Shown in pieces: positions 3,927-21,580 of a DNA stretch of 32,000 bases (its first letter is position 1; the number at the start of each line of letters is the position of its first letter). The stretch is from Dickeya solani IPO 2222 (GTDB taxonomy: Bacteria; Pseudomonadota; Gammaproteobacteria; Enterobacterales; Enterobacteriaceae). A program made the translations under genes and the position numbers. The stretch spans positions 1,560,001 to 1,592,000 of the forward strand of contig NZ_CP015137.1 of NCBI RefSeq assembly GCF_001644705.1, read 5' to 3'. Below the pieces are notes generated by a model. The model was not told the origin of the DNA, searched no databases, and saw nothing but the letters and a program-made list of their open reading frames with translations.

Positions 3927-5231
3927 CTACCTTCCATTGAGTACTTCACGGTACTGCGCCAATAACTTGAGGAACTTCCACAGATCAACTTCCCACTGAT
4001 GCCGGAAAGATCCGATGTAGTAGTTCTGCCCCAAGTCAGGATCCTGTTCTTTTTTCATCCGGCTAAAATCGTGCAACCCTTTGGCTTGTAAGAAGTAAGC
4101 CTTGAGATAGTCCACAACAAACAGACCATGAGAGCGGGCGGAAACACCGAGTCCGGTGGCAGAGTTGATGTAGCCGACAAATAAGAGGTTATCGAAGTTT
4201 TTGGGGACAATATGTAAGAAGCAATCGGGAATACCCTGCTTCATTTCCAGATATTTATTATCCAGAAACGGAAAATGGCGGTTATATCCTGTCGCATAAA
4301 TAATGGTATCGACTTCAATTTGTGAACCGTCTTCAAAGGTCACCGTCTGCCCTGAAAAAGCGCGCACATCTCCCTTAGGTTGAATATCGCCGTGACCAAT
4401 AAAATACAAAAGTTGCGAGTTCATGATTGGATGAGAAGCATCCAACGGATAATCCGGCTTTTTCAAGCCGTAATCCGTACCGTCATAACCGGCAAGCTTA
4501 AAAACCTGCTGTATATAAGCCAGCGTTTCTTCGCGGGTTTTAAATTTATTGCCCAGCCCTTCCATCCATCTCGGCGTCGGCATGCCATTGATAAATTTAG
4601 GCTGATAGTAATAACCACGGCGTGTACTGTGGTAAACAGCCGAACAATGATGAACCGCATCAACCGCAATATCGCAGCCGGAATTGCCGGCGCCGATAAT
4701 CAAGACCCGCTTCCCCTTGATGCGCTCCGGTGTCCGGTAATCGATAGAATGCATGATGTCACCGGCGAAGTGGCCGGGATAGGCAGGCTCAGGATAACGG
4801 CCTTCCCGCTGCATACCGTTGCTGACCAGCACAAAAGAATAGAACTTTCGCTCCCCTGTCGATAATTCAACCTGCCAGCCATCTGCCTGCGGTTCGATAC
4901 GGGTAACCGCAACATTGAAACGGGCCTTTTCATACACCCCAAACGTTTTCGCATAATCACAGACATACTGATGCATCAGTTTATGGCTGGGATAATGAGG
5001 GTAGTCTTCCGGCATGGGAAAATCTGGATACTGGGTATTAACCTTCGGCGAGATCAGATGTAGTGACGGATAGGTACGGCCACAGCGGCTGTCAGCATTC
5101 CATACTCCGCCAAAGTCAGACTCAGCTTCATACAGATCGTAATCGATACCGGCCTGGTTCAGTTCCTTACCGAGGCTGACACCGTAAGGGCCACCACCGA
5201 TAATGCATACTCGTTTTCCTTGTACATCCAT
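3927..5231 (-). CDS. FAD/NADPH-dependent class B flavoprotein monooxygenase (FMO-type; candidate Baeyer-Villiger oxygenase acting on ACP-bound intermediates, OocK-like)
   Basis: 434-aa ORF. GGGPYG (FAD Rossmann fold), FAGDIMHSIDY (FxGxxxHxxxY FMO signature), IIGAGNSGCDIAVD (NADPH fold), ATGY near the C-terminus. Sandwiched between two PKS genes with 63-nt and 6-nt gaps. Confidence 0.9.
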   Translation of the reverse strand: MDVQGKRVCIIGGGPYGVSLGKELNQAGIDYDLYEAESDFGGVWNADSRCGRTYPSLHLISPKVNTQYPDFPMPEDYPHYPSHKLMHQYVCDYAKTFGVYEKARFNVAVTRIEPQADGWQVELSTGERKFYSFVLVSNGMQREGRYPEPAYPGHFAGDIMHSIDYRTPERIKGKRVLIIGAGNSGCDIAVDAVHHCSAVYHSTRRGYYYQPKFINGMPTPRWMEGLGNKFKTREETLAYIQQVFKLAGYDGTDYGLKKPDYPLDASHPIMNSQLLYFIGHGDIQPKGDVRAFSGQTVTFEDGSQIEVDTIIYATGYNRHFPFLDNKYLEMKQGIPDCFLHIVPKNFDNLLFVGYINSATGLGVSARSHGLFVVDYLKAYFLQAKGLHDFSRMKKEQDPDLGQNYYIGSFRHQWEVDLWKFLKLLAQYREVLNGR

Positions 5232-5294
5232 GAATGAAATCCTTTTAACGTACTGGCTATCCGTACTGTTCGTTCGTCAGTAAGACCTTTTCGA

Positions 5295-8200
5295 TCACGC
5301 CTCAGACGGCTCAAGTGTGAGCAATGCGTCTTCTTTCGCCATTTTTAAGTTCCTGAGCCACAGACACAGCACACCCGACTCGTCGTACAACCTCAGGTCG
5401 TACCCCGGAAGATCGCCGGTGATAATCAAAGGTTCGTGCCCTACAGGCGTAGGAGAGATATAAACCATCACTCGTTCTGTTATCGGCTTAAAGGCGATGA
5501 TCGAATCCAGAGAGAACGGATACCACTGGTTGCGCCCTGTCGCCTGGGGATGACAATACTGGTTTAGTGCGCAAAGTAACTGCCAGCAGGTAGTCAGCAG
5601 GACCGGCCGGAAAGTCGGCACATTCAACTGACGGGGCAGTTCGGCAAGGGAATTGAATGTCACCAGCAACTGCTTACCATCAAAATCGACTTTTTCGATC
5701 AAAGCCTGATTCTTCAGACCGTCTTCATCGAATATCCGTCTGATTTGATGGGTTGTCTGATGGTTATGAGAGGCTTCCAGCTGCTTTTCCAGTTCCCGGA
5801 TATCCAGCGTGTCGCCCCCGCCGCCAGCAGTAGTGTTCAGGACAATTTGCCCAAAATTATGAGTCACGGATTCACCCGCTTTCTCAGTCACGCACTGGAA
5901 ATAGAGGCCATCATCTTCCCGGGAGATATAAGTCTGAATATGACCATTGAGGGCATCCTGCATACGGGCAGGCTGCCCCCACAGGATATAATTCAGTTCG
6001 GCAGTATGTTGCGGGGGCGCCATGTTTTCCCGGGTTGCCTGTTCCCAGGCACATCGTGCCGACTCCAGCAACAAGAGTCCAGGGAGTTGCCCCTGGGCGG
6101 CAATCACACCTGCCGCCATCATGTTCCCATAAGCGGAAAAATCGCCCGGAACATTAACTAACGCCTGAGCCGGCAACGTCTGTTGAAGCCCTCTGACGGT
6201 TTCTTCGGCCACCACGCTATTGCCGTGCGAAAACGCGGGGTGATCGGCAATGGAAACGGAAGACGCTGGACCAGAAGCGTCCGTCGTATCCGAAGAGAAA
6301 GCCGTCTCATCCGAAGCTATCGGGGAATGATCCGTATGCATGGTCGTCAGGTCGACCCAATAACGTTCGCGGGCAAAAGGGTACGTCGGCAGAGAAACCC
6401 GCTTGGGTCTGAGTGATGGCGCCACACTGGAATAGAGGATCTCCCAGTCGATATTCATGCCTTTCACCCATATATCCAGAAGCTTGGTAAATTTACCTTT
6501 ACTGGCCCATGCCTGAATCAGGTCATGCATATCTTCATCGACATCGAATACGGACAACGCATCACGATGCAATTTACTCTTTCCCTGATAGAGTAAATCG
6601 ACGGTCTGCTGCTCACCGGCAAGAACAGCTGAAAGCTTACGTTGCAATTCATCAAGAGTGTGGGCAACCAATCCCAAACGCTCATTCATCGCTTCACGTC
6701 CGGTTTGCAGGGTATAAGCCAGTGAGTGAAGGTATGCTTGCGCATGCCCTGCACTCTCTCCTTTCGCCTCTATCCGATTCGCATATTCGTTCACATGAGC
6801 CAGCAGATTGGCGGTCATCTGTTTGAGCTGTACATCATTTTTCGCCGACAACGGAATCAGTGCCGGATCGCGGGATAAATATTCTTCCGCAGAGATTTTC
6901 CTGGCCGATGGTTCCATCGCAGATAGCCCCTCAGTCGGGAATTGCTCAATGACTAAGTGGGCATTGGTTCCACTGAATCCGAAAGAACTCACGGCAGCCT
7001 GACGTCGCTGACCGGATTCCACTATCCAGTCTCTGAGTTCCCGGTTGACATAAAAAGGTGTGCCGTCCAACGTAATGTGCTCATTAAGTTCCTGATGATG
7101 CAGCGTTGGAGGAATCTGTTGGTTCTTCATTGCCAGCAACACTTTGAGCACCGAAGCGACCCCGGCGGCCCTCAGCGTGTGGCCGATGTTGCTCTTCACC
7201 GACCCCAGTGCGCAGTAGTTCTCTTTTTGGGTAAAGAGAGAGAAGGTCTGTTTTAGACCCACGACTTCCACAGGATCCCCCAGTTTGGTTCCTGTTCCGT
7301 GCGTCTCTACATACTGTATTTGCTCAGGATCGATACCAAAGCCGGTGTATACCGCCTGCTCCAGGCGAGACTGAGCATTGCCGTTCGGGGCCGTAATCCC
7401 ATTACTTTTACCATCCTGATTCACCCCCCAGCCTTTGATCACGCCGTGAATAACATCCTGATCTTCAATCGCATCTTCCAGGCGTTTTAACAGCACCACA
7501 CCAACGCCTTCTCCGGGGACAAAACCATTGGCTCGCTGATCAAAAGTAAAGCAGCGGCCATCTTCCGACAGCATTCCGGCCTTGCTGGTCATAATGTGCA
7601 TGCTTGGGCCAGCCAACACGGAGACCCCACCGGCCAGGGCCAGATCGCTATTTCCCAGCACCAGGCTGTCACAGGCAGATGCAATCGCCACCAGAGATGA
7701 CGAACAAGCCGTATCAATAGCCAGGCTCGGCCCCTGTAAATCCAGATGGTAGGCAATTCTTGCCGCTAAAATGGAAATCGCATTTCCCATAAAGGCTTGT
7801 GCATTGAGTTCCATTCCAAAGCGCGCGTCGTAGTCACCCTCCCCGCAACCGACGAAAACGCCGCACCGACTACCAGATAAATCAGCAGGGTTGTACCCAG
7901 CATCTTCAATACACCCCCAGCACGCCTCAAGAAATACCCGCTGCTGCGGATCCATCATCTCGGCTTCCCGGGGAGAAATATTAAAAAACAGCGGATCAAA
8001 CTTATCTGCATCTTCCAACACGCCCATCCATTTGGAATAGGTTTTGCCGGGTGTGTGACGATTACGATCGAAAAAGTCTTCAATCGCCCAGCGTTCCGCC
8101 GGAACTTCTGAAATACAATCGTCCCCTTTGCTCAAATTCTCCCAGAACTGTTGCAGATTCTTAGCCTTCGGGAACTGACCAGACATACCTACGATAGCAA

Positions 8201-11200
8201 TCGCCTGGCGCCTGGCAGGAGCCGGGCTTATAGCCAATTCTGTGTTTGCGGCGCAGGGGGTCGCCACTGCCTGTGGCTCGACACGTTCGGCCTTCAGGAG
8301 CGTCTGTTTGGCACTCGGTATCGATGTCTGAGACAGACCAGCCATAAGCTCAGCGCCGGTGTCAGAAGCAGAGGGCTGGGTCAATGTTGCTTCACCAAAA
8401 ACCGCAGAATCAGGAAGCGAAGATTGGCCAAGCCCGGAACAACGCTGAACCAGCAAGGCGAACTCTTGTAACGTTGGATGGCTGTATACTTCGGCAGCAT
8501 TCAGGTCCAGCCCGTAGTGCTGGTTGATCTTTCTGATCCAGGTGACACCGGTAATCGAATCCAGACCCAAATCGACAAACGCAACATTCGGATCGATCGC
8601 CTGAGGTTTGATTTGCAGCTCTTGAGACAGCGTTTGGCTTAAAAATTCCAGAATATTGGCTGGGGGCGTATTCGCGCGTTTCCGGGCATCAACCACATTT
8701 TCCCGAACATTGCTCCCAACAGTGACGTTGGATAACCCCACCGGTGCGGGTACAAAGCCGGGTGTCATCTCTGCCTCTATTTCCCGGCGTTCACCGGTTG
8801 CAGTATTTAGCCCCGCTTCTTTGATCACCAGCCCAGTGAATACTTTCAGACTGGGATAGCTGTACACGTCGGCAGCATTGAGAGTAAGCCCGTATTCCGC
8901 GTTGATGTTTCTAATCCAGGTGACGCCGGTAATCGAGTCCAGACCGAGATCAACAAAGGGTTGTTCACTTTCAATTTGTTCGGTTCTGATTTGCAACTCT
9001 TCTGCCAGCATGCGACGTAACAGGGAATAAACCTGTTCAAACACAGCATTACTGTCTTGTTCTTTCTGCACGGCACTCGTTGAATCCAACGCTTTCGTGC
9101 CCTGGACTCCAGAAACGCGCTGGTGACTGGCCTGCTCCTGACCACTGATTTGTTCCCGGTGGCTGAGCATCCCCTGGTTAAAATGCTGTTGGATACGAGC
9201 CAGCACCTCCTGATTGCCGACAAAAGTATGCTCATGCATCCGAAGCTCCAGAACATAATTCGCTTCGACTTGATTTCTGATGCGCCGCGAACGCTGTGTC
9301 TTCCTGGCAACCAGCTCATCTCGGGACATTCGGGCCATGGCATTGGCAGCCGCCAGAGCAAATGGCAGCACTTGAGCACGTTCAAGTACCGGGCTTTTGA
9401 GCCCGCGGGCCTGAAGTTCAAAACCTTTATACTCTTTGGCGGTAAACAGAACTTCTCTGGCAATATCCAGACCCAGGCGGCAGGGAAGAATGAGGGTTGA
9501 TCCGGCTCCCGGAGTGAATCCGTAGCGCATATAAGGACTGTAATAGACGCTTTCCTGACTGAAAATCGCATCGTCACAAAACATGCCCACAGCCCAGCCG
9601 GGACCAATACCATGCCCTTGCATGGCTGCGATCACCGGAATATCGCACTCCAGCGGTAAGGCAAAGATTTTCTCATCGGTAAACTTTGCGCTTCCCTTCT
9701 GGATCGCCTGCAACGTTTCCATCGTACCGCCGCTGGCAAAGTAGTGGTCATACCCGGTAAGCACCACCACTTTATAGGCCTGATTCTGGTGAATATGAGC
9801 AAAGATCTCTTCAAAACCGGCAACAAAGGCTTTCGAGAATTTATTACGACTTTCCCGCTCACACAACCGGACCAGCAGAACACCATTGTCATAGACTTCA
9901 GCGTCGATAACCGGAGAATTGAGCGCCACCTTGCGCGGCTTGCCCTGAGGTAATCCCAATTGCCCGGCCTTAAATGCCTGTAACCAGCTTTCCGTCAGTA
10001 CAGCGGATTCATGAGATTCAGGTACGGCCCTCTCGACAGCAAAAGCGAGCGGCCTCTCAGTCAACGCAACAGACTGACCGACAAGATTGGCTGCCAAATG
10101 TTGCTTCAATTGAATGAGCGCCTCTCTGGGCACGCTCGCCAGTTCCTGCGCCAGCTTCAGGCTTTCCTCGGCAACCTCCGTCGAAGGGAAAACCGGCATC
10201 AGCAAGCCCAGTTCTTTCAGATGGCGCCCTTCAATTCCCCGCCAATCGGTCAGCAATACCTGAGCCGCGGATGGTGTAAAACGCTCGCTAAGAAGATGAT
10301 ACAACTGCTGCGATACCATCTGTTTCTGGCTGACATACTGATAGCGGCCCGTGGTACTCAAAACAGCAAAATCGCACAGGCAGACAAACAACCACGCATA
10401 ACCTTTGCAATCGCCCGGTACAGAAGCGATCACTGGAAACGGCAACTCCAGAACGGTCCGATACAGCGCTTCTTGCAAAAACAGTTCGGTATCATCTTCG
10501 AGAGCGGGAAGAAAATGGTGTTCATCACCGCTGATCAGCAGAACGCTGATGTCCGTCCGATTTTTTATTTCATTGAGTAGACGGTGAAGATGACTGAGCC
10601 GGGCCATTCCCGGAGAATCCTCTATTAGCGAGCTGCCATTAGCATCATGAAGCCGAAGGCAAAATATGCCCTGGCCTTCATCCGTCAAACGAAATGGAGA
10701 GTTCTCAACGTTTAGATTCGAAACCTGAAATGGCGCTGCCACCTGAAATGCTTGCAGAGAAGCAAGTACCCGCTTGCCTTCTGCGCGTTCACCGGTTTTT
10801 TGACTGTCAGCTACGTCCAATACCGATAGCTCGGCATCTGCCGACATAACATCCGCCGACATAACATCTACCGACATAACAGTGGAGGCTCGTGCTGCCT
10901 GGCTATTCAGGGTATCCGGTGCCGAGTAGCGAGCGTCCTCTGGCAACCAGTACCGGTCTTGCTCAAAAGGATAAAGCGGCAAACCTGCCACACGTTGGCG
11001 CGGGGTCTGATACCATGCCGCCCAGTCGATTTGTCGACCTTCGAGCCATTGTCCGGCCAGCCCCCGTAAATCACGTCGCTGAATAGATGTATCGATGTCT
11101 GCCTGTTGCCGCCTGCTGTTACCTTTGTTTTTCTCTCCTTGCGCAACAGTGCCGGTAAGATAACTTTGAGCAAACGTATTCCGGTTTAGATAATCTTCCA

Positions 11201-14200
11201 GCCCAGTGAGTATCTCAGCATCGCTTTTTCCGGCAACAGCCAGGCGATGGCCTAAAGATTCACGTCCCAGTTGTAACGTATAAGCAATGTCTTTTAACCC
11301 ATTGGTTGTCAGATGCGGATGCTGCTGAATATACACTTTCAGTTGCCGGGCTAAGACATGCAATTGCGCTTCACTTCTGGCAGAAAGCAGTAATAGCGCG
11401 GGCTCAGGATCCAATTCCGGGAATTGGCTTGCTGGCGACACTTCCGACGGTCGGAATTCTTCAAGCACCATATGGACATTGGTCCCGCTAAAGCCGAAAG
11501 AACTCACTGCTGCGATCCGCTTTCCCTGAGAATTCGGTTGCCAATCCTTAACCTGGGTATTGACGACAAAAGGCGTGTCTTCAAAGGGAATCAGTGGATT
11601 CGGCTTTTCATAGTTCACGCTGGGAGCCAACTTACGATGCTTGAAAGACAGCAGGAGCTTGATCAGCGCACTGACCCCAGAAGCATGGACACAATGGCCG
11701 ATGTTACTTTTTACCGATCCAATTGCACAAAAACCGGTACGCTGGGTCTGTCTGCGGAAGGCATCTGTCAGGGCGGTGATCTCGATTGGATCACCTAGCT
11801 TCGTTCCGGTGCCGTGAGCTTCAATATAGGTCAGATCGTCAGCACTGAGATTCAGCTCATCGTATACCTGGCAAATCAACTCGGTCTGCGAGCGACTGCT
11901 TGGCGCTGTAATCCCGTTCGTCTTACCATCCTGGTTCATGCCTGAGCCTTTGATCACACTATAAATGTGGTCTTTATCGTCAATTGCATCCTGCAACCGC
12001 TTTAGGATCACGACACCAACCGCTTCGCCCGGCACAAAACCATCAGCCCGGTGATCAAAAGGCTTACAACGCCCATCGGCCGACAACATCCCGGCTTTGG
12101 CACACAAAATGTGGAAGTTGGCCGTGGTATGGATTGAAACACCACCGGCAATTGCCATATCGATAGCGCCGTTTCTCAAACTTTCACAAGCCAAATGTAC
12201 CGCAGCCAATGACGATGAAGAGGCGGTATCGATCGCCATCGCCGGGCCTTTCATGTCCATAAAATAGGCAATCCGGGCAGCCAAAATCGATGAGTCGTTC
12301 CCCATAAATGAAGAGGCATCGAGTGGGATATCATGCTGTCGCAGATTAGCCTGATAGTCCCCGGCATCGGCACCGGCATAAACGGCCCATTTTTTGTCTT
12401 TTATCTCACGGTTGGCATATCCAGCATCTTCCAGCGCGTGCCAACTTTCCTGTAAAAACAAACGTTGCTGAGGGTCCATTTGCCTGGCTTCTTTGCCGGA
12501 AATTCCAAAAAAAGAAGCATCAAATTTATCAATATCTTCAATAAACCCGCCCCATCGGCCATAGGTCTTATTTGGCTTCGTACGGTCTTCATCAAAATAG
12601 GCAGCAATATTCCAACGCTCTGCCGGGACTTCGGAAATACAATCGCCACCGTCCAGTAACAAGGACCAGAACGCATCGACATTCACCACGCCGGGGAAAC
12701 GTGCGGACACTCCGATAACGGCAATATCCCCCTCATAACCCCCCTCATAGATAGGCCGGGCCGTCTTGCTGGTATCATCCGTTTTTTGCAGGATTTTTCT
12801 TGTCTGGTTGGCTTCGCTGCGTTGTACCGTATCATCCTGAATATCGATTTCCCGCCACTCCGACTGCATACGCGTCACAATAGCATTCTGATAATTTTCC
12901 ATCAGATAGCAGCGTAAATCATTCACACAGCCATAATCGAAGAGCACCGTACTGGGAAGTTTTATCGCAAAAGCGCCGTTCAGTTTTACAACCAAATTAA
13001 TTGCTGCAAAGGAGTCAACGCCATACTCAGAAAATGCTTTAGCCTCGTCGATATCAACCTTTTTCTTCAGACATTCAAGCAAGTTCTTCACGAGCACTGC
13101 GTTGATATAATTCAGGATGGCGTCTTCGTCGATGTCGACGGATTGCGGCACAATCTCTTGTTCTGTCTGCTGATACTCTGCCTGTTCATATTCCGATTCA
13201 GACCGGAGAGTCGGTAACCGCCCACGATGATCACCGATCTGTTGCATCAGGATCGTATCTGTCGACGGCAACCTTTGCTGCGAAGCTGTTGCAGACTCAG
13301 ATTGTGCATTTTCATTACTTGAAGCAATCGTCTGTGATGAGGGAGTAAAAACCAGTTCGGCTAACACAGTGGCTGGTATGGTGTAAGTCCACACGCCGGA
13401 AGATTCTGATACATACTGGATTGAGTCGATACTGCGCAGGAATATTTCAGCCGGTTTGTTTTTATCACTTGCCGCAAATCGGATTTCAACGGTCTCTTTC
13501 TTCCGTTCCAGAGCTTTCCGACCTAGTACATTCAGCATCTGATATTCAACACCACGCCCCAGCACACGACAACTGAGCAATCCCCCATCAACGGATAGCA
13601 CATTTTCCCGCTCGGAGAAAAAGCACAAACCGCAAATACCATAATCGCCGAATCGATCAGCGACACGGATACTCAGACAACCCTGTTCTGGGCTCTGAAT
13701 TCTGGCAAGAATATCGGCAACGGTGTATGGCGCTTTGACAAAGTTAAACTGATTGGTGCGATGCGTCAGTTGAGATAGTCTCTCAGCCTGGTCTTGCGTC
13801 GCTGGCTGGATTGTAATTTCAAGTTCCAGTCCGCGAATGAACGCCTCCATACTGAATGCACTCTGACGGAACGCTTCACGCCGAACCTGCTCCTGATACA
13901 TGTGGGTACGTTTTGCGTCTTCATTCGTTTGGCGATGCACCTGATCAAAGCCCCAGACATGAGCAAGGAATCCCGGAATATCGTTACTATTTTCAGGCAA
14001 TCGCAAACTTAATACCTGTGGGCAGCCAGCAGAAACTTCAGCGTATTCAATCGGACTATCATCCAGAAAAATAAAGCTATCCAAGCCCAGGTTTAGGTTT
14101 TTTGCCAGACGTTGAAGATTATCGGACTTGGCATTCCAGTTGATTTTTGTGTCAACAAAATCATGCCATTGCAAAATCATGTCGTCACGACTGTCAAATA

Positions 14201-16847
14201 CCCGCTTGACGTCCTCATGATTATTCTTGCTCACCAGACATAAAAGCATGCCCTGCTCTTTCTGGCGTAACATGAACTGTTGCAACGCACGATAATTCGA
14301 ATCGATCTTGATGCCTTCGGCCCCCTGTTCACCAACCACGCCAGACCACAGCGTGTTATCGCAATCAAGGGCGATCACTTTATAAGGGGGGCGCTGGAAG
14401 GCATGGATATGACGCACAAGAACCGATGCAATGATCTCAAAAAACTCTGGTGTATAAGGAATATGCCCCATCTCATCACGAACGGCATCGTGGTATTCGG
14501 TGACATCATAAGCCGCCGACTCGCTGTTCAGATCAATGCCGATAATATCCGTCTTATCCCCCAGAATCTGTTGCATCATCTGAGGCATGTTCTCAAGCAG
14601 ATCGGTAGAAAACCTTTCCCGCATCTCTGGGGACGGAGGGCAAAGCACAAAGAGCGTAGGCCCCCGACGGCTACCTTGTGTCTCTCTGACCAGGGTCAGC
14701 AGTTCCTTAAAGTTATCGCTGATCCCCTGCTCAAATGGAGTAAGGCGATGCTGATTGTCAGCATGAGCAACAGGACGTCTGGCATAAAAATTGGCTAAAC
14801 CTGAAGACTTAAGCATCTCTTCTTCAACAATCGCCAGCTCAAAGCCTTTATCCCGCAGTAACCGGGCTATTTTATCCGCGGTTGTACCTTCTTTATCATG
14901 AACTTCAACGACAACCTGACGAATATTCGGCCATATTTCATCAGCAATACTGCTTAAAATGTCCCATTCGCATTTTTCGGCATCCACTTTCAGCAGATCG
15001 ATAGTCTCAATATGATGCTCTTGCATAATACTGGCTAACGAACGCATCTGAACCTGATAGGTTTGTTTTTGCAGACGCTCACTGATCATGGCATCCAAAT
15101 GTTCCCGAATAGCTTCACTATCCGTATCGCCGAAACGCTTGGTCACTTCATTTTCCATTGATTTTTTCAGCGCTTCGCCATCTTCTGTTTCATCGGTATG
15201 AAACCCTGACCAGACCGAAGAATTCGGGTAAAAAACAAATTCGGCTTCCCCGTCCTTGTCGGCAATACCCACTTGCAAAGCTTTCGCCTGAGGCGCATAC
15301 AATGCGAGGTTCTTTCGAAGAATGGCGTAAGAAATCGGTGAAGGTTCGCAAGAAAAAATACGTAAATCAGGACATTGGGTTGTAGCAAACAGAGAGAACA
15401 TTCCGATGTTGCCGCCAATATCGACTATCACATCTCCCTGTTGAAAAGAAATGCCGTGCTTCGCGTATGTTTTCTCTACGAAAATCTCTTCATAGAGATA
15501 GCTGGTTTCATAAGGTTTTAGATGTGCGACCTCCATACCGTTAGGCAGTACAAAGCGTTCACAATCCGTCAAATGATGCTCAATTTGCTCCGAAGAAACC
15601 TGGGGTACCTCACCTTTCCCCGAGGTCGCAGTTATCGGAGGCATAGTTGTCGGAGGCATAGTTGTCGGAGGCATAGTTATCGAAGGAATAGTTATCGGGC
15701 CATTGGCAACCAGATCTTCTAACCGACAGAGAATCGCATTTACACCTTCGGTGTTCGCGGTCAGTAAACGTTGTTGATCCAGAAGTTCCTGATAAACTTG
15801 GTTATATGGCGCAAATTTAATCTGATCGTTCCAGTTCAGGCGAGAGAACCATACTTGCAAAGGTTCAGCGATCGGCTCTGCGGTGAAGGTCGCAGCAATG
15901 GCCCATGATTGACCAGCAACACTCCCCGTTTGATTTTGTTGACCAAAGCCCGATTGGTTGTCTGTCAGTTGTTCTATTTCCACCGTCTGCTCACTTTGTT
16001 CGGCTCTTTGATATGAGCGAATATGTAACCCTTTCATTTCCACCAATATCTCTCCCGACTCATTAGCTAAAAACACATCAAAAACTCCCTTTTCGGGCGT
16101 GTCTGAAACGGCCTGTCTGGGTATGACAAACACATCACACTTTGGCGTTAAATGTGTGTAAATCACGATATTTTCTAACGAAAAAGGCACATAAACCTGA
16201 TGTTGATGATCGCACCGCCGGGTTTCTCTGACGCCAAGTAAAACAGTTTGAACTGCGGCATCGAGTATGTAGGGAGAAGGGAGGTCTGTCAGACTCGCTT
16301 CATCAGCCACGATCCGACCCCAAAAAAGATCCTGGCTGCAGTGAAGCTCGTCCAGACACTGAAACTGTTCCCGGTAGTTGATTCCGCCGGCCAGAAACAA
16401 GCGGTAAATTTCATCGCGGTTCAGCCGATGAGTGAAGGTGTGAGATGACGTATCAGGAAGACGAAAAACAGGTGCTTCGGCATTGTTTGTAGCCAGTTTC
16501 TTATTCAAACCAGGCTCATTGTTTAAACCTGAGAAAACAACACCTGTCGCATGGCGTTTTGTCGCGTTTCCCGGAACCTTGGATGTGACCCAATAGGTGG
16601 TGCCATCCCCATCAGTATCCAGATGAATATTAACCTGGCAAACGCCCTCCGCAATGGCTAGTGGCGCAAACCATACGGCATCTTTTACCCGAAAAGGGTA
16701 GATAGAAAGCTCATGATTACTTTGCCTTTTATCCAAGAGGGAGGCCGCGACAAAATGAATATATCCCATCGCCGGTAGGATTGGTTCATCTAATACTATG
16801 TGTCCAGAAATAATAGTGCTTCTATTATTTAATGTGTATTCTGACAT
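5295..16847 (-). CDS. trans-AT type I polyketide synthase, 3850 aa: DH-like / FkbM-MT / FkbH / ACP / KS(Cys->Ser) / ECH-degenerate / ECH2 / ACP / ACP / KS / DH-degenerate
   Basis: Single 11.5-kb ORF; AAGGAGG Shine-Dalgarno sequence (complement of 16853-16859) upstream of the ATG. Motifs in order: HIVLDEPILP and LDAAVQ; VIVDIGGNIGMF; LDCDNTLW and LLSCRVLGRG; YGVDSF; DTASSSSL/EAHGTGT/SNIGH; two crotonase folds; GLDSITGVTW x2; DTACSSSL/ETHGTGT/SNIGH; hot-dog-like C-terminus. No GHSxG acyltransferase motif seen. Confidence 0.95.
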   Translation of the reverse strand: MSEYTLNNRSTIISGHIVLDEPILPAMGYIHFVAASLLDKRQSNHELSIYPFRVKDAVWFAPLAIAEGVCQVNIHLDTDGDGTTYWVTSKVPGNATKRHATGVVFSGLNNEPGLNKKLATNNAEAPVFRLPDTSSHTFTHRLNRDEIYRLFLAGGINYREQFQCLDELHCSQDLFWGRIVADEASLTDLPSPYILDAAVQTVLLGVRETRRCDHQHQVYVPFSLENIVIYTHLTPKCDVFVIPRQAVSDTPEKGVFDVFLANESGEILVEMKGLHIRSYQRAEQSEQTVEIEQLTDNQSGFGQQNQTGSVAGQSWAIAATFTAEPIAEPLQVWFSRLNWNDQIKFAPYNQVYQELLDQQRLLTANTEGVNAILCRLEDLVANGPITIPSITMPPTTMPPTTMPPITATSGKGEVPQVSSEQIEHHLTDCERFVLPNGMEVAHLKPYETSYLYEEIFVEKTYAKHGISFQQGDVIVDIGGNIGMFSLFATTQCPDLRIFSCEPSPISYAILRKNLALYAPQAKALQVGIADKDGEAEFVFYPNSSVWSGFHTDETEDGEALKKSMENEVTKRFGDTDSEAIREHLDAMISERLQKQTYQVQMRSLASIMQEHHIETIDLLKVDAEKCEWDILSSIADEIWPNIRQVVVEVHDKEGTTADKIARLLRDKGFELAIVEEEMLKSSGLANFYARRPVAHADNQHRLTPFEQGISDNFKELLTLVRETQGSRRGPTLFVLCPPSPEMRERFSTDLLENMPQMMQQILGDKTDIIGIDLNSESAAYDVTEYHDAVRDEMGHIPYTPEFFEIIASVLVRHIHAFQRPPYKVIALDCDNTLWSGVVGEQGAEGIKIDSNYRALQQFMLRQKEQGMLLCLVSKNNHEDVKRVFDSRDDMILQWHDFVDTKINWNAKSDNLQRLAKNLNLGLDSFIFLDDSPIEYAEVSAGCPQVLSLRLPENSNDIPGFLAHVWGFDQVHRQTNEDAKRTHMYQEQVRREAFRQSAFSMEAFIRGLELEITIQPATQDQAERLSQLTHRTNQFNFVKAPYTVADILARIQSPEQGCLSIRVADRFGDYGICGLCFFSERENVLSVDGGLLSCRVLGRGVEYQMLNVLGRKALERKKETVEIRFAASDKNKPAEIFLRSIDSIQYVSESSGVWTYTIPATVLAELVFTPSSQTIASSNENAQSESATASQQRLPSTDTILMQQIGDHRGRLPTLRSESEYEQAEYQQTEQEIVPQSVDIDEDAILNYINAVLVKNLLECLKKKVDIDEAKAFSEYGVDSFAAINLVVKLNGAFAIKLPSTVLFDYGCVNDLRCYLMENYQNAIVTRMQSEWREIDIQDDTVQRSEANQTRKILQKTDDTSKTARPIYEGGYEGDIAVIGVSARFPGVVNVDAFWSLLLDGGDCISEVPAERWNIAAYFDEDRTKPNKTYGRWGGFIEDIDKFDASFFGISGKEARQMDPQQRLFLQESWHALEDAGYANREIKDKKWAVYAGADAGDYQANLRQHDIPLDASSFMGNDSSILAARIAYFMDMKGPAMAIDTASSSSLAAVHLACESLRNGAIDMAIAGGVSIHTTANFHILCAKAGMLSADGRCKPFDHRADGFVPGEAVGVVILKRLQDAIDDKDHIYSVIKGSGMNQDGKTNGITAPSSRSQTELICQVYDELNLSADDLTYIEAHGTGTKLGDPIEITALTDAFRRQTQRTGFCAIGSVKSNIGHCVHASGVSALIKLLLSFKHRKLAPSVNYEKPNPLIPFEDTPFVVNTQVKDWQPNSQGKRIAAVSSFGFSGTNVHMVLEEFRPSEVSPASQFPELDPEPALLLLSARSEAQLHVLARQLKVYIQQHPHLTTNGLKDIAYTLQLGRESLGHRLAVAGKSDAEILTGLEDYLNRNTFAQSYLTGTVAQGEKNKGNSRRQQADIDTSIQRRDLRGLAGQWLEGRQIDWAAWYQTPRQRVAGLPLYPFEQDRYWLPEDARYSAPDTLNSQAARASTVMSVDVMSADVMSADAELSVLDVADSQKTGERAEGKRVLASLQAFQVAAPFQVSNLNVENSPFRLTDEGQGIFCLRLHDANGSSLIEDSPGMARLSHLHRLLNEIKNRTDISVLLISGDEHHFLPALEDDTELFLQEALYRTVLELPFPVIASVPGDCKGYAWLFVCLCDFAVLSTTGRYQYVSQKQMVSQQLYHLLSERFTPSAAQVLLTDWRGIEGRHLKELGLLMPVFPSTEVAEESLKLAQELASVPREALIQLKQHLAANLVGQSVALTERPLAFAVERAVPESHESAVLTESWLQAFKAGQLGLPQGKPRKVALNSPVIDAEVYDNGVLLVRLCERESRNKFSKAFVAGFEEIFAHIHQNQAYKVVVLTGYDHYFASGGTMETLQAIQKGSAKFTDEKIFALPLECDIPVIAAMQGHGIGPGWAVGMFCDDAIFSQESVYYSPYMRYGFTPGAGSTLILPCRLGLDIAREVLFTAKEYKGFELQARGLKSPVLERAQVLPFALAAANAMARMSRDELVARKTQRSRRIRNQVEANYVLELRMHEHTFVGNQEVLARIQQHFNQGMLSHREQISGQEQASHQRVSGVQGTKALDSTSAVQKEQDSNAVFEQVYSLLRRMLAEELQIRTEQIESEQPFVDLGLDSITGVTWIRNINAEYGLTLNAADVYSYPSLKVFTGLVIKEAGLNTATGERREIEAEMTPGFVPAPVGLSNVTVGSNVRENVVDARKRANTPPANILEFLSQTLSQELQIKPQAIDPNVAFVDLGLDSITGVTWIRKINQHYGLDLNAAEVYSHPTLQEFALLVQRCSGLGQSSLPDSAVFGEATLTQPSASDTGAELMAGLSQTSIPSAKQTLLKAERVEPQAVATPCAANTELAISPAPARRQAIAIVGMSGQFPKAKNLQQFWENLSKGDDCISEVPAERWAIEDFFDRNRHTPGKTYSKWMGVLEDADKFDPLFFNISPREAEMMDPQQRVFLEACWGCIEDAGYNPADLSGSRCGVFVGCGEGDYDARFGMELNAQAFMGNAISILAARIAYHLDLQGPSLAIDTACSSSLVAIASACDSLVLGNSDLALAGGVSVLAGPSMHIMTSKAGMLSEDGRCFTFDQRANGFVPGEGVGVVLLKRLEDAIEDQDVIHGVIKGWGVNQDGKSNGITAPNGNAQSRLEQAVYTGFGIDPEQIQYVETHGTGTKLGDPVEVVGLKQTFSLFTQKENYCALGSVKSNIGHTLRAAGVASVLKVLLAMKNQQIPPTLHHQELNEHITLDGTPFYVNRELRDWIVESGQRRQAAVSSFGFSGTNAHLVIEQFPTEGLSAMEPSARKISAEEYLSRDPALIPLSAKNDVQLKQMTANLLAHVNEYANRIEAKGESAGHAQAYLHSLAYTLQTGREAMNERLGLVAHTLDELQRKLSAVLAGEQQTVDLLYQGKSKLHRDALSVFDVDEDMHDLIQAWASKGKFTKLLDIWVKGMNIDWEILYSSVAPSLRPKRVSLPTYPFARERYWVDLTTMHTDHSPIASDETAFSSDTTDASGPASSVSIADHPAFSHGNSVVAEETVRGLQQTLPAQALVNVPGDFSAYGNMMAAGVIAAQGQLPGLLLLESARCAWEQATRENMAPPQHTAELNYILWGQPARMQDALNGHIQTYISREDDGLYFQCVTEKAGESVTHNFGQIVLNTTAGGGGDTLDIRELEKQLEASHNHQTTHQIRRIFDEDGLKNQALIEKVDFDGKQLLVTFNSLAELPRQLNVPTFRPVLLTTCWQLLCALNQYCHPQATGRNQWYPFSLDSIIAFKPITERVMVYISPTPVGHEPLIITGDLPGYDLRLYDESGVLCLWLRNLKMAKEDALLTLEPSEA
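5313..6185 (-). other. PKS domain: C-terminal degenerate DH-like (hot-dog) domain
   Basis: AAGVIAAQGQLPGLLLLE aligns to the DH HxxxGxxxxP box with Gly (codon 6108-6110) where the catalytic His should be. The second-box position reads LLTTCWQ instead of DxxxQ/H. Confidence 0.6.
6945..8207 (-). other. PKS domain: KS2 (canonical)
   Basis: AIAIVGMSGQFP...IDTACSSSLVAI (Cys codon 7704-7706)...VETHGTGTKLGDP...SNIGHTLRAAG...SSFGFSGTNAHLVIEQ. Confidence 0.92.
8442..8660 (-). other. PKS domain: ACP (second of a tandem pair), Trp flag
   Basis: ILEFLSQTLSQELQIKPQAIDPNVAFVDLGLDSITGVTWIRKINQHYGLDLNAAEVYSHPTLQEFALLV. Confidence 0.88.
8817..9044 (-). other. PKS domain: ACP (first of a tandem pair), Trp flag
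   Basis: VFEQVYSLLRRMLAEELQIRTEQIESEQPFVDLGLDSITGVTWIRNINAEYGLTLNAADVYSYPSLKVFTGLV; Ser codon 8934-8936. Confidence 0.88.
9180..9911 (-). other. PKS domain: in-line enoyl-CoA hydratase/crotonase, ECH2 (decarboxylase, PksI/CurF type)
   Basis: YKVVVLTGYDHYFASGGT...PVIAAMQGHGIGPGWAVGMFCDDAIFSQESVYYSPYMRYGFTPGAGST. Closely parallels the free-standing ECH2 at 21581-22330 (VILTGYDSYFATGGT...PVISAMQGHAVGGGLVMGLFADFVIMSQESIYTANFMKYGFTPGMGGT). Confidence 0.85.
10068..10715 (-). other. PKS domain: degenerate crotonase-fold domain (ECH*)
   Basis: Crotonase-like spacing (ISVLLISGDEHHFLPALEDD ... PFPVIASVPGDCKGYAWLFVCLCDFAVLS ... LASVPREALIQLKQHL), but the FxAGxD and GxxxGGG oxyanion-hole boxes are not conserved. 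Confidence 0.6.
10841..10880. repeat. ~2.7 x 15-bp in-frame tandem repeat encoding (MS[VA]DV)n in the KS1-ECH linker
   Basis: ccgacataacatcNN at 10841 and 10856, with a partial copy at 10871. PKS frame reads MSVDV-MSADV-MSAD. Confidence 0.9.
11457..12728 (-). other. PKS domain: KS1 with active-site Cys replaced by Ser
   Basis: DIAVIGVSARFPG...AMAIDTASSSSLAAVH (Ser codon TCT = complement of 12219-12221, where DTACSSS is expected)...EAHGTGTKLGDP...SNIGHCVHASG...SSFGFSGTNVHMVLEE. Confidence 0.9.
12894..13130 (-). other. PKS domain: loading ACP
   Basis: ILNYINAVLVKNLLECLKKKVDIDEAKAFSEYGVDSFAAINLVVKLNGAFAIKLPSTVLFDYGCVNDLRCYL; Ser codon 13011-13013. Confidence 0.85.
13353..14705 (-). other. PKS domain: FkbH-like glyceryl-ACP synthase/phosphatase (HAD-IIIC core plus catalytic-Cys domain)
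   Basis: YKVIALDCDNTLWSGVVGE (DxDxT; first Asp codon 14364-14366), LVSKNN, FLDDSP, GLLSCRVLGRGVEYQML (Cys codon 13569-13571). Confidence 0.85.
14778..15560 (-). other. PKS domain: FkbM-family SAM-dependent methyltransferase
   Basis: GDVIVDIGGNIGMFSLFATTQCPDLRIFSCEPSPISYAILRKNL...EAEFVFYPNSSVWSGF...IDLLKVDAEKCEWDIL. This matches my memory of the FkbM (Methyltransf_21) pattern. Confidence 0.75.
15625..15696. repeat. ~4.8 x 15-bp in-frame tandem repeat encoding ([TI][TI]MPP)n
   Basis: ggaggcatagttgtc at 15637 and 15652 (identical), ggaggcatagttatc at 15667, gaaggaatagttatc at 15682, partial copy at 15625-15636. PKS frame reads PITIPSITMPPTTMPPTTMPPITAT. Confidence 0.95.
15993..16847 (-). other. 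PKS domain: N-terminal DH-like hot-dog domain
   Basis: ISGHIVLDEPILPAMGY gives HxxxDxxxxP (His codon 16800-16802), i.e. the DH HxxxGxxxxP box with Gly->Asp. PYILDAAVQTVL supplies the DxxxQ box. Confidence 0.6.
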
Positions 16848-17930: not shown

Positions 17931-18182
17931 ATGAGCCACAAAAGCAAGGAAGATATTTTCAATATTATCGTGCATAACTTACTGGAAATCCTCCCATATC
18001 TGGATACCAGTACCATTGCTCTAGAACAGAGCATGAAAGACTTAGGAGCCAATTCAATTGACCGGGCTGATGTTCTGCTCTCTAGCATGGAAACCCTCGA
18101 TCTCATGTTCCCTCTCCATGAAGCCGGAGACCTCAAAAATATCGGAGAATTAGTGGATTTCCTGCACGCCAAAGCACAGTAG
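17931..18182 (+). CDS. discrete acyl carrier protein of the beta-branching cassette (donor ACP, AcpK/CurB type)
   Basis: 83 aa; AAGGAG Shine-Dalgarno sequence 6 nt upstream. MKDLGANSIDRADVLLSSME phosphopantetheine site (Asn-Ser instead of Asp-Ser). Immediately precedes KS(Ser)-HMGS-ECH1-ECH2. Confidence 0.85.
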   Translation: MSHKSKEDIFNIIVHNLLEILPYLDTSTIALEQSMKDLGANSIDRADVLLSSMETLDLMFPLHEAGDLKNIGELVDFLHAKAQ

Positions 18183-18245
18183 TCATCCACACTATGCTGA
18201 TCTTCTGGCGAATATGGCCTTTCAGTGAATCAAAGCAGGATGCGT

Positions 18246-19502
18246 ATGAAGAACAATGTCGTTGTGACCGGCTTAGGCGTAGCAGCTGCGAATGGAATCG
18301 GAATACCAGCTTTTACCCAATCACTGAAAACAGGTATCAGTGGAATCAACAGGCATACCAACGAATTTCCAGAAATCAAGGCAAGCCTGGCTGATTACAA
18401 CTATAAGGCGGCATTAGAGTCTTTATCTCTCACTCAGGAAGAGCGAAAAGATGCTTTGCGCCTGGGGGCCAGAGTGCCGTTGAGTACCCGGGTATCACTC
18501 GCAACTGCACTTGAAGCCTGGCATGATGCTTTTGCCGACGGATGCCCTTACCCTCCAGAACAAAGGGGAATCATCATTGCCGGGCATAACGTCGAGCAAA
18601 AATATCAATATCAAATCCGACAATCCTTCATCGACCAACCCGAATTTGTTCCTGCAAGTTATGCGCTGTACTTTATGGACACAAATCAGTTAGGTCTGAT
18701 CAGCGAGCTTTTAACTATCCGTGGAGAAGGCTGTACTGTTGGTGGCGCTTCAGCCAGCGGAAACTCCGGCATTATCCAGGCATACAGGCAAGTCGCATCA
18801 GGAATCACCCAGTCTTGTCTGGTCGTCGGAGCAATGGCAGATTTATCACCTCCAGAGATACAGGCATTCAAAAACAGCGGCGCCCTGCTGACCCAAAGCG
18901 ACTCTAGTGATCCCGCACAGCTTTGTCGCCCCTTTGATCAAGATCGAAAAGGGTTTGTTTACGGTCAAGGATGTGCCTGTCTGTTGCTGGAAAATGAACA
19001 AAGTGCCCGTGAACGCCACGCACCGATTTGGGGACGAATTCTTGGTGGCAGTATCTGCCTGGATGCCAATCGAGGCAGTAATCCAAGTTGTGAAGGTGAG
19101 TCTCGGGTGATGCAACAGGCGCTGTTGACTGCCTGTTGTCCCTATGATTCGGTCGACTACATCAATACGCATGGCACCAGTTCACTTATGGGCGATGAAA
19201 CTGAAATCGCCGCCATCAAGCGTGTTTTTGGCCCTTACCATCAACGGATTTGGCTCAATTCAACCAAAAGCCTCACGGGGCACTGCCTGTATGCCGCCGC
19301 TGCCGTAGAGACGGTAGCCACATTGATACAAATGAAAGAGCGCTTTCTTCACCCAAACTTGAACCTGGAAACACCGATCAACGATGAATGCCGTTTTGTC
19401 GGGCAACATGCCCAACACCAGGAAATCAAAGTCGCTTTGAATAATGCCTTCGGTTTCGGCGGCATTAATACCTGTGTTGTGTTGGCGCATGCCAGCCAAT
19501 AG
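18246..19502 (+). CDS. free-standing KS-like malonyl-ACP decarboxylase (KS with Cys->Ser; PksF/CurC type)
   Basis: FabF-like fold. TVGGASASGNSG, where STACATG is expected (Ser codon TCA 18750-18752); NTHGTSSLMGD and SLTGHCLYAAA histidines retained. The ORF track starts at GTG 18225. I prefer ATG 18246 (MKNNVVVTGLG) because AGGA sits 5 nt upstream. Confidence 0.85.
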   Translation: MKNNVVVTGLGVAAANGIGIPAFTQSLKTGISGINRHTNEFPEIKASLADYNYKAALESLSLTQEERKDALRLGARVPLSTRVSLATALEAWHDAFADGCPYPPEQRGIIIAGHNVEQKYQYQIRQSFIDQPEFVPASYALYFMDTNQLGLISELLTIRGEGCTVGGASASGNSGIIQAYRQVASGITQSCLVVGAMADLSPPEIQAFKNSGALLTQSDSSDPAQLCRPFDQDRKGFVYGQGCACLLLENEQSARERHAPIWGRILGGSICLDANRGSNPSCEGESRVMQQALLTACCPYDSVDYINTHGTSSLMGDETEIAAIKRVFGPYHQRIWLNSTKSLTGHCLYAAAAVETVATLIQMKERFLHPNLNLETPINDECRFVGQHAQHQEIKVALNNAFGFGGINTCVVLAHASQ

Positions 19503-19533: not shown

Positions 19534-20796
19534 ATGATTTCTGTTGGAATTGAAGCGATAAACGCATTTTGTGGTACCAGCTACATTAATGTCAGAGATC
19601 TGGCTCAACACCGCCAGCTAGATATGTCCCGTTTTGATAATCTCTTGATGAAGCAAAAAACGGTGAGTTTGCCTTGTGAAGATCCTGTCAGCTTTGCCGT
19701 CAATGCAGCAAAACCCATTGTGGATTCGTTAAGTGAGCAAGAAAAAAACAGCATTGAACTGTTGATCACCTGTACAGAATCAGGAATCGACTTCGGCAAA
19801 TCAATCAGTACCTATGTTCACCACTATCTGGGGCTAAAGCGAAACTGTCGCTTGTTCGAATTGAAAACTGCCTGTTACTCCGGTGTTGCCGGCTTGCAAA
19901 TGGCTGTCAATACAATCCTTTCCCAGACATCTCCCGGCAGCAAAGCTTTAGTTATTGCCACAGATATGACGCGCTTTATTCTGGAGGAAGAAAACGGTGA
20001 CCATACCAGCCAGGACTGGTCTTTTGCCGAGCCGAGCGGTGGCTCCGGCGCTGTTGCCATGCTGGTCAGCGACTCCCCTCACGTTTTTCAGATCGATGTG
20101 GGTGCAAACGGCTATTACGGTTATGAAGTGATGGATACATGCAGGCCTGTCCCGGATAGAGAAACCGGCGATTCGGATCTGTCATTACTGGCTTATCTGG
20201 AATGTTGTGAAAAGGCCTACCTGGAGTACGAAAAACGCGTTGCTGGCATTGATTATGTCAACACATTTGGTTATCTGGCATTCCATACGCCTTTCGGTGG
20301 AATGGTCAAAGGCGCTCACCGTAACATGATGCGTAAACTGATTCGCGCCACCCCCCAGGATACAGAAGCCGATTTTAATCGTCGCGTGGCTCCTGGGCTG
20401 AATTATTGTCAGCGCGTCGGTAATATCATGGGGGCAACATTAGCACTTTCCCTGCTCAGCACCTTGTCGAATGCGGATATTCAGTCACCACAGCGGATTG
20501 GGTGTTTTTCTTACGGTTCTGGATGTTGTTCCGAGTTTTTCAGTGGTGTCGTTACCCCTGAAGGCTGTCAGCGTGTAAGACAGCTGGAAATCGGGGCTCA
20601 TCTTGACAGACGCCGCGAACTGACGATGAGTGAATATGACGCGCTGCTTTACGGCAACCATGGGGTCCGCTTCGGTACCCAAAATGTCACTCTGGACCTG
20701 AGTCATTTCCCCCAGATCCATTCCGCTACCCAGAAAGCCCGTCATCTCGTACTGAGCCGAATCAACGAATTTCACCGTGAATATGAGTGGGTCTGA
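19534..20796 (+). CDS. HMG-CoA synthase homologue (PksG/CurD-type beta-branching HMGS)
   Basis: 420 aa. ELKTACYSGVAGLQ (catalytic Cys), LAFHTPFGGMV, CFSYGSGCCSEFFSG. AGAGGGA Shine-Dalgarno sequence upstream. Confidence 0.92.
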   Translation: MISVGIEAINAFCGTSYINVRDLAQHRQLDMSRFDNLLMKQKTVSLPCEDPVSFAVNAAKPIVDSLSEQEKNSIELLITCTESGIDFGKSISTYVHHYLGLKRNCRLFELKTACYSGVAGLQMAVNTILSQTSPGSKALVIATDMTRFILEEENGDHTSQDWSFAEPSGGSGAVAMLVSDSPHVFQIDVGANGYYGYEVMDTCRPVPDRETGDSDLSLLAYLECCEKAYLEYEKRVAGIDYVNTFGYLAFHTPFGGMVKGAHRNMMRKLIRATPQDTEADFNRRVAPGLNYCQRVGNIMGATLALSLLSTLSNADIQSPQRIGCFSYGSGCCSEFFSGVVTPEGCQRVRQLEIGAHLDRRRELTMSEYDALLYGNHGVRFGTQNVTLDLSHFPQIHSATQKARHLVLSRINEFHREYEWV

Positions 20797-20798
20797 CA

Positions 20799-21575
20799 AT
20801 GCCATCTTATCAAACAATCCGGTTAAGGCAGGAAGGGGCCGTGTTGTACTTGCAGATATACCGACCTGAAGCCAGTAACACCATCAATGAAAACTTTGCA
20901 ATAGAGTGCCGGGAGGTTATCCGGCAATACCGGGATAAAATCAGTATATTAGTCGTTGAAGGATTACCTGAAGTCTTTTGCTTTGGCGCTGATTTGCAGG
21001 CAATAGAGCAAGGCAACATTGCCGGCAACGGCAGTAGTGGTCGTCCCCAGGATCCAGAGATCCTTTATGAGGTCTGGCAAGATATGATGAGCGGACCTTA
21101 CATCAGCATCGCTCATGTCAGAGGCAAAGCCAACGCGGGAGGAATAGGTTTCGTTGCCGCCAGTGATATCGTCATTGCAGACACTGGAGCCATGTTCAGC
21201 CTGTCTGAAATGTTGTTCGGTTTGCTGCCTGCCTGTGTACTTCCCTTTCTGGTACACAAGATAGGGAAACAAAAAGCTCACTATATGACGTTAATGACAA
21301 AACCCGTGTCAGCAGAACAGGCTCACAACTGGGGTTTAGTCGACGACTACGGTGACAACAGTGACTTGATTCTCAAAAAGCACATACAACGGCTCAACTG
21401 CTTATCAAAACGCGCCATTGCTCGCTACAAATCATACATGAGTGAGCTGGATACTATTACCCGAGATCAAAAACCTGCAGCCCTGGCTCTGAATGTGGAA
21501 ATTTTTTCCGATCAGGAAAACCTCAGCAAAATATCCCGTTACATCCAAACGGGAAAATACCCTTGGGAGGCATAA
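20799..21575 (+). CDS. enoyl-CoA hydratase/crotonase ECH1 (dehydratase, PksH/CurE type)
   Basis: VLYLQIYRPEASNTIN...EVFCFGADLQ...VRGKANAGGIGFVAASDIVIAD. ATG 20799 lies 2 nt after the HMGS stop; the ORF track's alternative start is GTG 20787. Confidence 0.85.
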   Translation: MPSYQTIRLRQEGAVLYLQIYRPEASNTINENFAIECREVIRQYRDKISILVVEGLPEVFCFGADLQAIEQGNIAGNGSSGRPQDPEILYEVWQDMMSGPYISIAHVRGKANAGGIGFVAASDIVIADTGAMFSLSEMLFGLLPACVLPFLVHKIGKQKAHYMTLMTKPVSAEQAHNWGLVDDYGDNSDLILKKHIQRLNCLSKRAIARYKSYMSELDTITRDQKPAALALNVEIFSDQENLSKISRYIQTGKYPWEA

Positions 21576-21580
21576 AGAGA

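Follow-up and report, generated by a model that had tools for sequence, protein, structure and literature searches.

A serine-for-cysteine ketosynthase in the first elongation module of the oocydin polyketide synthase is conserved across the oocydin, gynuellalide and phormidolide family

The Cys-His-His triad of ketosynthase (KS) domains is treated as a defining requirement for condensation in fatty acid synthases (FAS) and polyketide synthases (PKS), and annotation tools and engineers score a KS lacking the Cys as non-condensing. The closest described systems to the one considered here are the trans-acyltransferase (trans-AT) PKSs for oocydins and phormidolide-type compounds, whose first shared feature is an exomethylene beta-branch (Helfrich et al., PMC7930024). 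In the published model of OocJ, the first oocydin PKS protein, module 1 makes a 2-methoxyacrylyl starter, as in the phormidolide PKS, module 2 elongates and installs the methylene beta-branch, and a module of KS2, OocK and OocL then inserts oxygen, OocK being a Baeyer-Villiger monooxygenase that acts on beta-ketoacyl thioesters (Meoded et al., PMC6174933). Oocydin A is the cleaved form of oocydin B, which keeps the cryptic starter (PMC7930024), and an uncleaved congener has been isolated from Serratia plymuthica (PMC6174933). A previous paper called the whole first module non-functional, and a point mutant of the loading acyl carrier protein (ACP_L) in S. plymuthica abolishes activity (PMC4552970). 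The stretch analyzed here is 32,000 nucleotides of Dickeya solani IPO 2222 (NZ_CP015137.1, positions 1,560,001 to 1,592,000; referred to as the window), which encodes an exact match to OocJ and therefore covers the left-hand portion of the trans-AT PKS cluster for oocydin (ooc). In D. solani this cluster is functional, as deletion of oocL abolishes antifungal activity (PMC10168573). The unusual feature is in the first in-line KS of OocJ, KS1, which carries Ser where the nucleophilic Cys is expected.

An earlier note on this DNA, made from the sequence alone, had reported a TCT Ser codon in place of the catalytic Cys codon of KS1, with the HGTGT and NIGH motifs intact, and both readings are borne out by the minus-strand codons; Pfam delimits a complete KS domain here, and the catalytic Lys and the FGFSGTN motif are present as well (Table 1). 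Translation of the minus strand from 12260 to 12200, through the codons ACC GCC TCT TCA, gives MDMKGPAMAIDTASSSSL, and Ser1543 sits in AIDTASSSSLAAVH, such that the motif is DTASSSS rather than the normal DTACSSS; TCT is separated from TGT by one G-to-C change, a single transversion. The alignment shows no variation in either His, the Lys or FGFSGTN. Alignment of KS1 with KS2 of OocJ, with a Cys-bearing sister KS from a metagenome locus (L004, described below) and with solved trans-AT KS structures is gap-free around the site, and Ser1543 thus aligns exactly with the nucleophilic Cys. In an AlphaFold2 model of KS1 (pLDDT 95.4) the Ser lies at the start of helix 173–189, immediately after strand 167–170, and Ser1543 in this prediction occupies the nucleophilic elbow; the model superimposes on the bacillaene KS2 structure 4NA2 with a TM score of 0.96 and an rmsd of 1.6 Å. 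The possibility raised in the earlier note that the nucleophile is offset, with a Cys available nearby, finds no support, there being neither a gap nor an offset Cys in KS1 when it is aligned with its homologues, KS2 and the sister KS. The Cys following the second His (NIGHC) was considered as a relocated nucleophile and rejected: GHC is present in 90 of 853 KS domains that have the normal Cys, and also in the L004 sister, and so the NIGHC Cys of KS1 is not compensatory.

The earlier note had proposed comparing orthologues for Ser or Cys at this position, and had listed a sequencing error or a recent inactivating mutation in this strain among its explanations, TCT being one transversion from TGT. 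In seven homologues, those of D. solani, D. oryzae, Musicola paradisiaca, Serratia sp., S. marcescens MSU97, Gynuella sunshinyii (GynD) and a Pseudanabaenales cyanobacterium, Ser is present in all and Cys in none. The KS1 domains of D. oryzae and M. paradisiaca are each 96% identical to that of D. solani, with Serratia sp. at 91%, S. marcescens MSU97, which is described as an oocydin A producer (PMC5334600), at 89%, and both GynD, of the gynuellalide pathway, and the 4999-residue phormidolide-type Pseudanabaenales PKS at 69%. The codon is TCT in six of these and the synonymous TCA in the Pseudanabaenales cyanobacterium. Within D. solani, an identical OocJ is found on 28 contigs, and in every member of the D. 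solani 90% cluster that spans the site KS1 carries Ser and KS2 carries Cys. With these sequences, the strong purifying selection described below and the biological activity of the D. solani cluster (PMC10168573), the chance that the Ser is an error or a fresh lesion is practically nil.

PhmE (Leptolyngbya sp. ISBN3-Nov-94-8), the Leptolyngbya sp. PCC 7375 protein and S. plymuthica OocJ stand outside this set of seven. Searches for further members of the clade gave, among protein homologues, only proteins shorter than about 750 residues and at most 56% identical, long PKS proteins evidently having been missed; a scan of metagenomes with generic patterns gave nothing above 55%, and among plasmids tblastn gave nothing at 60% or more and megablast nothing.

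The Ser-bearing KSs are 69–96% identical to each other and at most 59% identical to any Cys-bearing KS. In a neighbour-joining tree of 118 KS domains (200 bootstraps) the seven KS1 sequences are monophyletic with 98.5% bootstrap support and are nested among ordinary in-line Cys KSs, with the KS of L004, from a Desulfobacteraceae metagenome-assembled genome, as their sister (96.5%). GynD and the cyanobacterial protein both retain the whole block of dehydratase (DH), methyltransferase (MT), FkbH, ACP, KS(Ser), two enoyl-CoA hydratase (ECH) domains, two or three ACPs and KS, and GynD is drawn with this domain string and an ordinary 'KS' in the supporting information of PMC7930024. The Ser thus arose once, and is an ancient, family-wide and selected feature rather than a recent lesion.

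Selection was estimated by the Nei-Gojobori method from the enterobacterial orthologues over eleven segments of OocJ, with dS up to 1.4. KS1 has the lowest dN/dS of the eleven (0.03–0.05), below that of KS2 (0.05–0.08) and of the linkers, ACPs and first ECH (about 0.2–0.3). Clade-invariant residues that differ from those of other KSs at pocket positions include H1573, C1582, which we take to correspond to Phe202 of E. coli FabF, and V1720, and their invariance argues that KS1 still binds an acyl group.

The L004 locus (JAAEMC010001111.1, nt 802–8489) belongs to an uncharacterised cluster and contains the nearest Cys-bearing relative of the Ser clade, with an HMG-CoA synthase (HMGS) gene followed by DH-MT-FkbH-ACP-KS(Cys)-DH. 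A stop near nt 5086, perhaps an error of assembly, interrupts its FkbH frame. The loader upstream of the KS is the same as in OocJ, and a DH takes the place of ECH-ECH-ACP-ACP downstream. FkbH-primed PKSs lacking the DH (P0122, P0154 and P0235) also have Cys. In the sequences seen, Ser tracks the downstream ECH-ECH-ACP-ACP beta-branching module. An attractive proposal, that Ser keeps the 2-methoxyacrylyl starter from modifying the enzyme by Michael addition, is weakened by the L004 sister, which keeps Cys behind the same loader.

The placement of KS1 described in the earlier note, between an FkbH-loaded ACP and a pair of beta-branching ACPs, is confirmed by the DH-MT(FkbM)-FkbH-ACP string upstream and the ECH-ECH pair with two flagged ACPs downstream. 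HMGS-type branching needs a beta-ketoacyl-ACP, and a Claisen condensation of the starter carbonyl with a malonate unit must therefore occur in this module; by colinearity KS1 would be its catalyst. The structures of the products (oocydin B and phormidolide), with an exomethylene branch built on a beta-keto intermediate, likewise argue that KS1 most likely condenses. We have moderate confidence that KS1 is a working, selected elongating KS with Ser substituted for the nucleophilic Cys.

In the mechanism that we propose, the loading module (DH, O-methyltransferase, FkbH and ACP_L) would provide glycerate-derived 2-methoxyacrylyl-ACP_L, and KS1 would either accept the acyl group on Ser1543, forming an oxoester, or hold the ACP_L thioester in its active site. 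KS1 would then decarboxylate malonyl-ACP with its intact His-His-Lys machinery and form 4-methoxy-3-oxopent-4-enoyl-ACP on the tandem flagged ACPs. From this beta-keto group the HMGS cassette and in-line ECH domains would build the exomethylene branch, and chain extension and oxygen insertion would fall to KS2, OocK and OocL. Condensation by the Ser enzyme, which the earlier note had offered as an oxoester route, stays the best reading, to which non-covalent and other-KS variants are added here. Of the two routes, the oxoester is put forward tentatively, and direct condensation on the ACP-bound starter, with no covalent acyl-enzyme, is rated slightly less likely. The broader proposition, that a natural family of modular-PKS KSs elongates by Claisen chemistry without a Cys, through a Ser oxoester or by non-covalent attack on the upstream ACP thioester, is a serious possibility that falls a little short of probable. 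Such a Cys-less KS may perhaps be tied to handing the electrophilic 4-methoxy-3-oxopent-4-enoyl intermediate to the beta-branching machinery.

Several points weigh against condensation by KS1. Engineered Cys-to-Ser KSs, including E. coli FabB C163S and the animal FAS KS C161S, keep decarboxylation and essentially lose condensation, oxoesters are weaker electrophiles than thioesters in Claisen chemistry, and non-colinear behaviour, with another KS acting, is known in trans-AT PKSs. In addition, L004 retains Cys with the same loader, and the starter as such does not demand Ser. In a rival explanation KS1 does not condense and has been retained for scaffolding, docking or gatekeeping, perhaps also as a decarboxylase, and the condensation is performed by another KS, either in trans or by KS2 acting twice; trans-AT PKSs are also known to use modules iteratively, and the Cys-His-His set of KS2 is normal. 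However, in a mere scaffold both His residues, the Lys and the pocket residues would hardly have stayed unchanged across three bacterial orders, KS1 is the most constrained domain of OocJ, the window contains no additional Cys-bearing free-standing KS, and known non-elongating KS0 domains show the reverse pattern, with Cys kept and His lost (PMC7327777). We regard this explanation as unlikely.

Ser at the nucleophile position is rare, occurring in 17 of 853 KS domains in the collected proteins, in three of 256 in genome loci, all three of which are the KS1 orthologues, and in one of 145 in metagenome loci. The remaining Ser KSs surveyed come from unrelated lineages and are either N-terminal, starting within the first 90 residues, or stand-alone, placements that fit a role in decarboxylative priming; the ooc/gyn/phm clade is the sole case of a Ser KS behind a loaded ACP. 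These observations bear on a further explanation, also listed in the earlier note, in which KS1 only decarboxylates malonyl-ACP to acetyl-ACP, either as a primer of the KSQ or KSS type or as an in-line copy of the HMGS-cassette KS, with the FkbH-derived unit not being incorporated. Loss of Cys to Ser with both His retained is the signature of decarboxylating KSs, including the cluster's own: the free-standing Ser decarboxylase that the earlier note had recognized is present, with a GGASASG motif and a PksF-type match above the cut-off. KS1 is nonetheless unrelated to those KSs, as in the neighbour-joining analysis it is placed among in-line elongating KSs with OocF very distant, and the cluster already has a complete separate ACP/KS(Ser)/HMGS/ECH cassette. 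Furthermore, an acetyl group on the flagged ACPs would leave the branching enzymes without a beta-keto group to act on, purifying selection acts on the MT and FkbH domains, activity is lost in the ACP_L mutant (PMC4552970), and oocydin B, haterumalide B and phormidolide carry a starter-derived, exomethylene-branched unit (PMC6174933, PMC7930024). Decarboxylation as the only activity of KS1 is accordingly disfavoured by the products and the mutant, and we consider it quite improbable.

The survey includes other KSs with altered nucleophile positions. N-terminal KSs of several large trans-AT-like PKSs (P0126, P0193, P0099, P0129, P0173, P0190, P0228, P0252 and P0265) have His (DAAHASSL), Gln or Ser at this position, and locus L094 has an N-terminal KS(Ser) at 8001–9272 in the order KS(Ser)-ACP-ACP-KS-C-A; these domains probably serve in decarboxylative loading and arose several times independently. 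P0074 (a JGI contig of 10.5 kb) and L160 (2188–3984) encode stand-alone KS(Ser)-linker proteins of 530–600 residues, the former with NB-ARC/TPR and kinase genes as neighbours and no PKS neighbour, and P0102 is a KS-linker protein that is first in an operon.

The features of the window are listed in Table 1. OocJ is ordered as a DH-like domain, an FkbM-type MT, FkbH, ACP, KS1 with its linker, two ECH domains, two ACPs, KS2 and a C-terminal region. The first in-line ECH segment (about 9948–10669, minus strand) shows relaxed constraint relative to the second, and may be degenerate or purely structural. The linkers include tandem peptide repeats, TMPPTTMPPTTMPP at about residues 391–408 (15618–15686, minus strand) and VMSVDVMSADVMSAD at about residues 1990–2004 (10836–10880, minus strand); the TMPPTTMPPTTMPP repeat is absent from the M. 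paradisiaca orthologue, indicating that the OocJ linkers vary in length. The approximately 500 C-terminal residues past KS2 (about 3330–3850; 5295–6900, minus strand) have no Pfam match and are fast evolving, with dN/dS of 0.20–0.29; in the published model this region belongs to the split oxygen-insertion module (PMC6174933). The ACP, KS, HMGS and two ECH genes of the branching cassette are transcribed divergently from oocJ and oocK. The border of the cluster lies within 22447–30534, where there is a LysE-type exporter gene (22447–23055, minus strand), an open reading frame with no Pfam match (24314–25051), rsgA, psd and a gene for an mscM/kefA-type channel.

Table 1. Features of the D. solani window, with positions counted from its first nucleotide.
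Feature	Position	Strand	Basis
oocJ, first PKS gene of the oocydin cluster, 3850 aa	5295..16847	-	Exact protein in Dickeya solani records, 28 contigs
N-terminal DH-like domain of the loading module; His of HxxxDxxxxP and DxxxQ present	15993..16823	-	Pfam PS-DH, PKS_DH_N
FkbM-type methyltransferase; dN/dS 0.03–0.13	14835..15422	-	Pfam PF05050
FkbH domain (HAD-IIIC phosphatase / glyceryl loader)	13428..14384	-	NCBIfam TIGR01686, 293 bits (cut-off 147)
Loading ACP (ACP_L), GVDS, no Trp flag	12894..13118	-	Pfam PP-binding, motif position
KS1 of OocJ, Ser variant, complete, aa 1374–1797	11457..12728	-	Pfam PF00109 and PF02801
Ser1543 codon TCT, replacing the KS nucleophilic Cys	12219..12221	-	Codon reading, gap-free alignment, elbow position in AlphaFold2 model
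His1678 of HGTGT, first catalytic His, intact	11814..11816	-	Sequence reading, alignment
Lys1713 (11709–11711) and His1718 (11694–11696) of VKSNIGH; catalytic Lys and second His, intact	11694..11711	-	
First in-line ECH-like domain (ECHa)	10059..10496	-	Domain matches; dN/dS 0.23–0.34
Second in-line ECH (ECHb, PksI-like); dN/dS 0.05–0.12	9177..9914	-	NCBIfam NF005496, Pfam ECH_1
Tandem beta-branching ACPs, GLDSITGVTW in both (GxDSxxxxxW flag)	8439..9041	-	Pfam, motif reading
KS2 of OocJ, normal Cys: DTACSSS, Cys3048 at 7704–7706	6924..8201	-	Pfam, alignment
oocK, FMO-type Baeyer-Villiger monooxygenase	3927..5231	-	Pfam PF00743; function from PMC6174933
Free-standing donor ACP of the HMGS cassette	17931..18182	+	NCBIfam NF005502, 84 bits (cut-off 79)
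Free-standing decarboxylating KS (OocF), GGASASG, Ser for Cys	18225..19502	+	NCBIfam NF005490 (PksF-type), 559 bits (cut-off 445)
HMG-CoA synthase homologue and two free-standing ECH genes	19534..22330	+	

In the accessible literature, neither the Ser substitution nor its family-wide conservation is mentioned and the domain is drawn as a normal KS; the primary ooc (Matilla et al. 2012) and phm (Bertin et al. 2016) cluster papers are outside that scope. Because of this, and because the first module was once called non-functional (PMC4552970), the bare substitution may have been noted before, and the underlying sequences are already public. What is new is that the Ser is conserved throughout the ooc/gyn/phm family, that it arose once, beside a Cys-bearing sister, that selection on the domain is strong, and that it conflicts with the biosynthetic model in use after 2018. 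A Cys-less KS sits where four characterised pathway families, those of oocydin/haterumalide, gynuellalide, phormidolide and leptolyngbyalide, need a carbon-carbon bond. If KS1 does condense, the mechanistic repertoire of ketosynthases would widen to an oxoester or a non-covalent route, in what would be the first such case among the condensing domains of type I PKSs or FASs; the rule for calling inactive KSs would change, and there would be a natural system for asking why thioester chemistry is otherwise universal. Serratia plymuthica 4Rx13 is an established genetic platform for the oocydin PKS (PMC11260071), and the question of KS1 activity is thus directly testable.

KS1 can be compared with several known types of KS. 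The free-standing KS(Ser) of HMGS cassettes (the PksF/CurC/MupG type, to which OocF belongs) similarly has Ser for Cys and keeps both His, but OocF stands alone as a FabF-like protein of about 420 residues with an NF005490 match, encoded beside a donor ACP and HMGS, whereas KS1, with its linker, is built into a PKS and located behind a loaded ACP; the two are separated by a distance of about 1.7 in the neighbour-joining analysis. The KSQ and KS(Ser) domains of loading modules (e.g. pikromycin and GfsA KSQ; PDB 7UWR and 7VEE), of which nystatin NysA KS(Ser) is a further example and the N-terminal Ser KSs of L094, P0129, P0190 and others in the survey are of the same type, are also integrated, with the nucleophile replaced and the decarboxylation residues kept. 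They differ in standing at the start of the line with no upstream ACP or acyl donor, whereas KS1, although its nucleophile is likewise replaced, is not a first domain, follows a full FkbH loading module and ACP, and is of another lineage. The KS0 domains of trans-AT PKSs are also in-line with a defective catalytic set, but the pattern in KS1 is reversed, with His present and Cys absent; typical KS0 domains are without the HGTG His and keep the Cys for transacylation, and the loss of a His stated in the earlier note is thus established (PMC7327777).

A precedent for oxoester chemistry is DpsC of daunorubicin priming, a KASIII-like enzyme with a Ser-His-Asp triad and a reported Ser acyl-enzyme; as described, it differs from KS1 in being FabH-like and free-standing in a type II system, with a different triad. 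The best single-domain PDB sequence match to KS1 is the engineered C167S variant of a bacillaene PksL KS (KS6; PDB 5E5N and 5E6K, compared with 5ERF), which is 48% identical and reads IDTASSSSL, the same DTASSSSL motif as in KS1, but this is an artificial mutation made for structural work and not a natural Ser KS.

The canonical elongating trans-AT KSs, such as bacillaene PksJ KS2 (PDB 4NA1–3), share with KS1 the thiolase fold, both catalytic His and the Lys, FGFSGTN, a position between ACPs and a C-terminal RhiE-like linker, which together with KAsynt_C_assoc is also matched in KS1 by Pfam. Canonical Cys-bearing in-line KSs are up to 59% identical to KS1, which differs in having Ser1543, fixed throughout its clade, at the position of the nucleophilic Cys in DTACSSS. 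KS1 belongs with the ooc/gyn/phm KSs, which are defined by the Ser, at least 69% identity, DH-MT-FkbH-ACP upstream, and ECH-ECH with flagged tandem ACPs downstream, all of which are present in OocJ.

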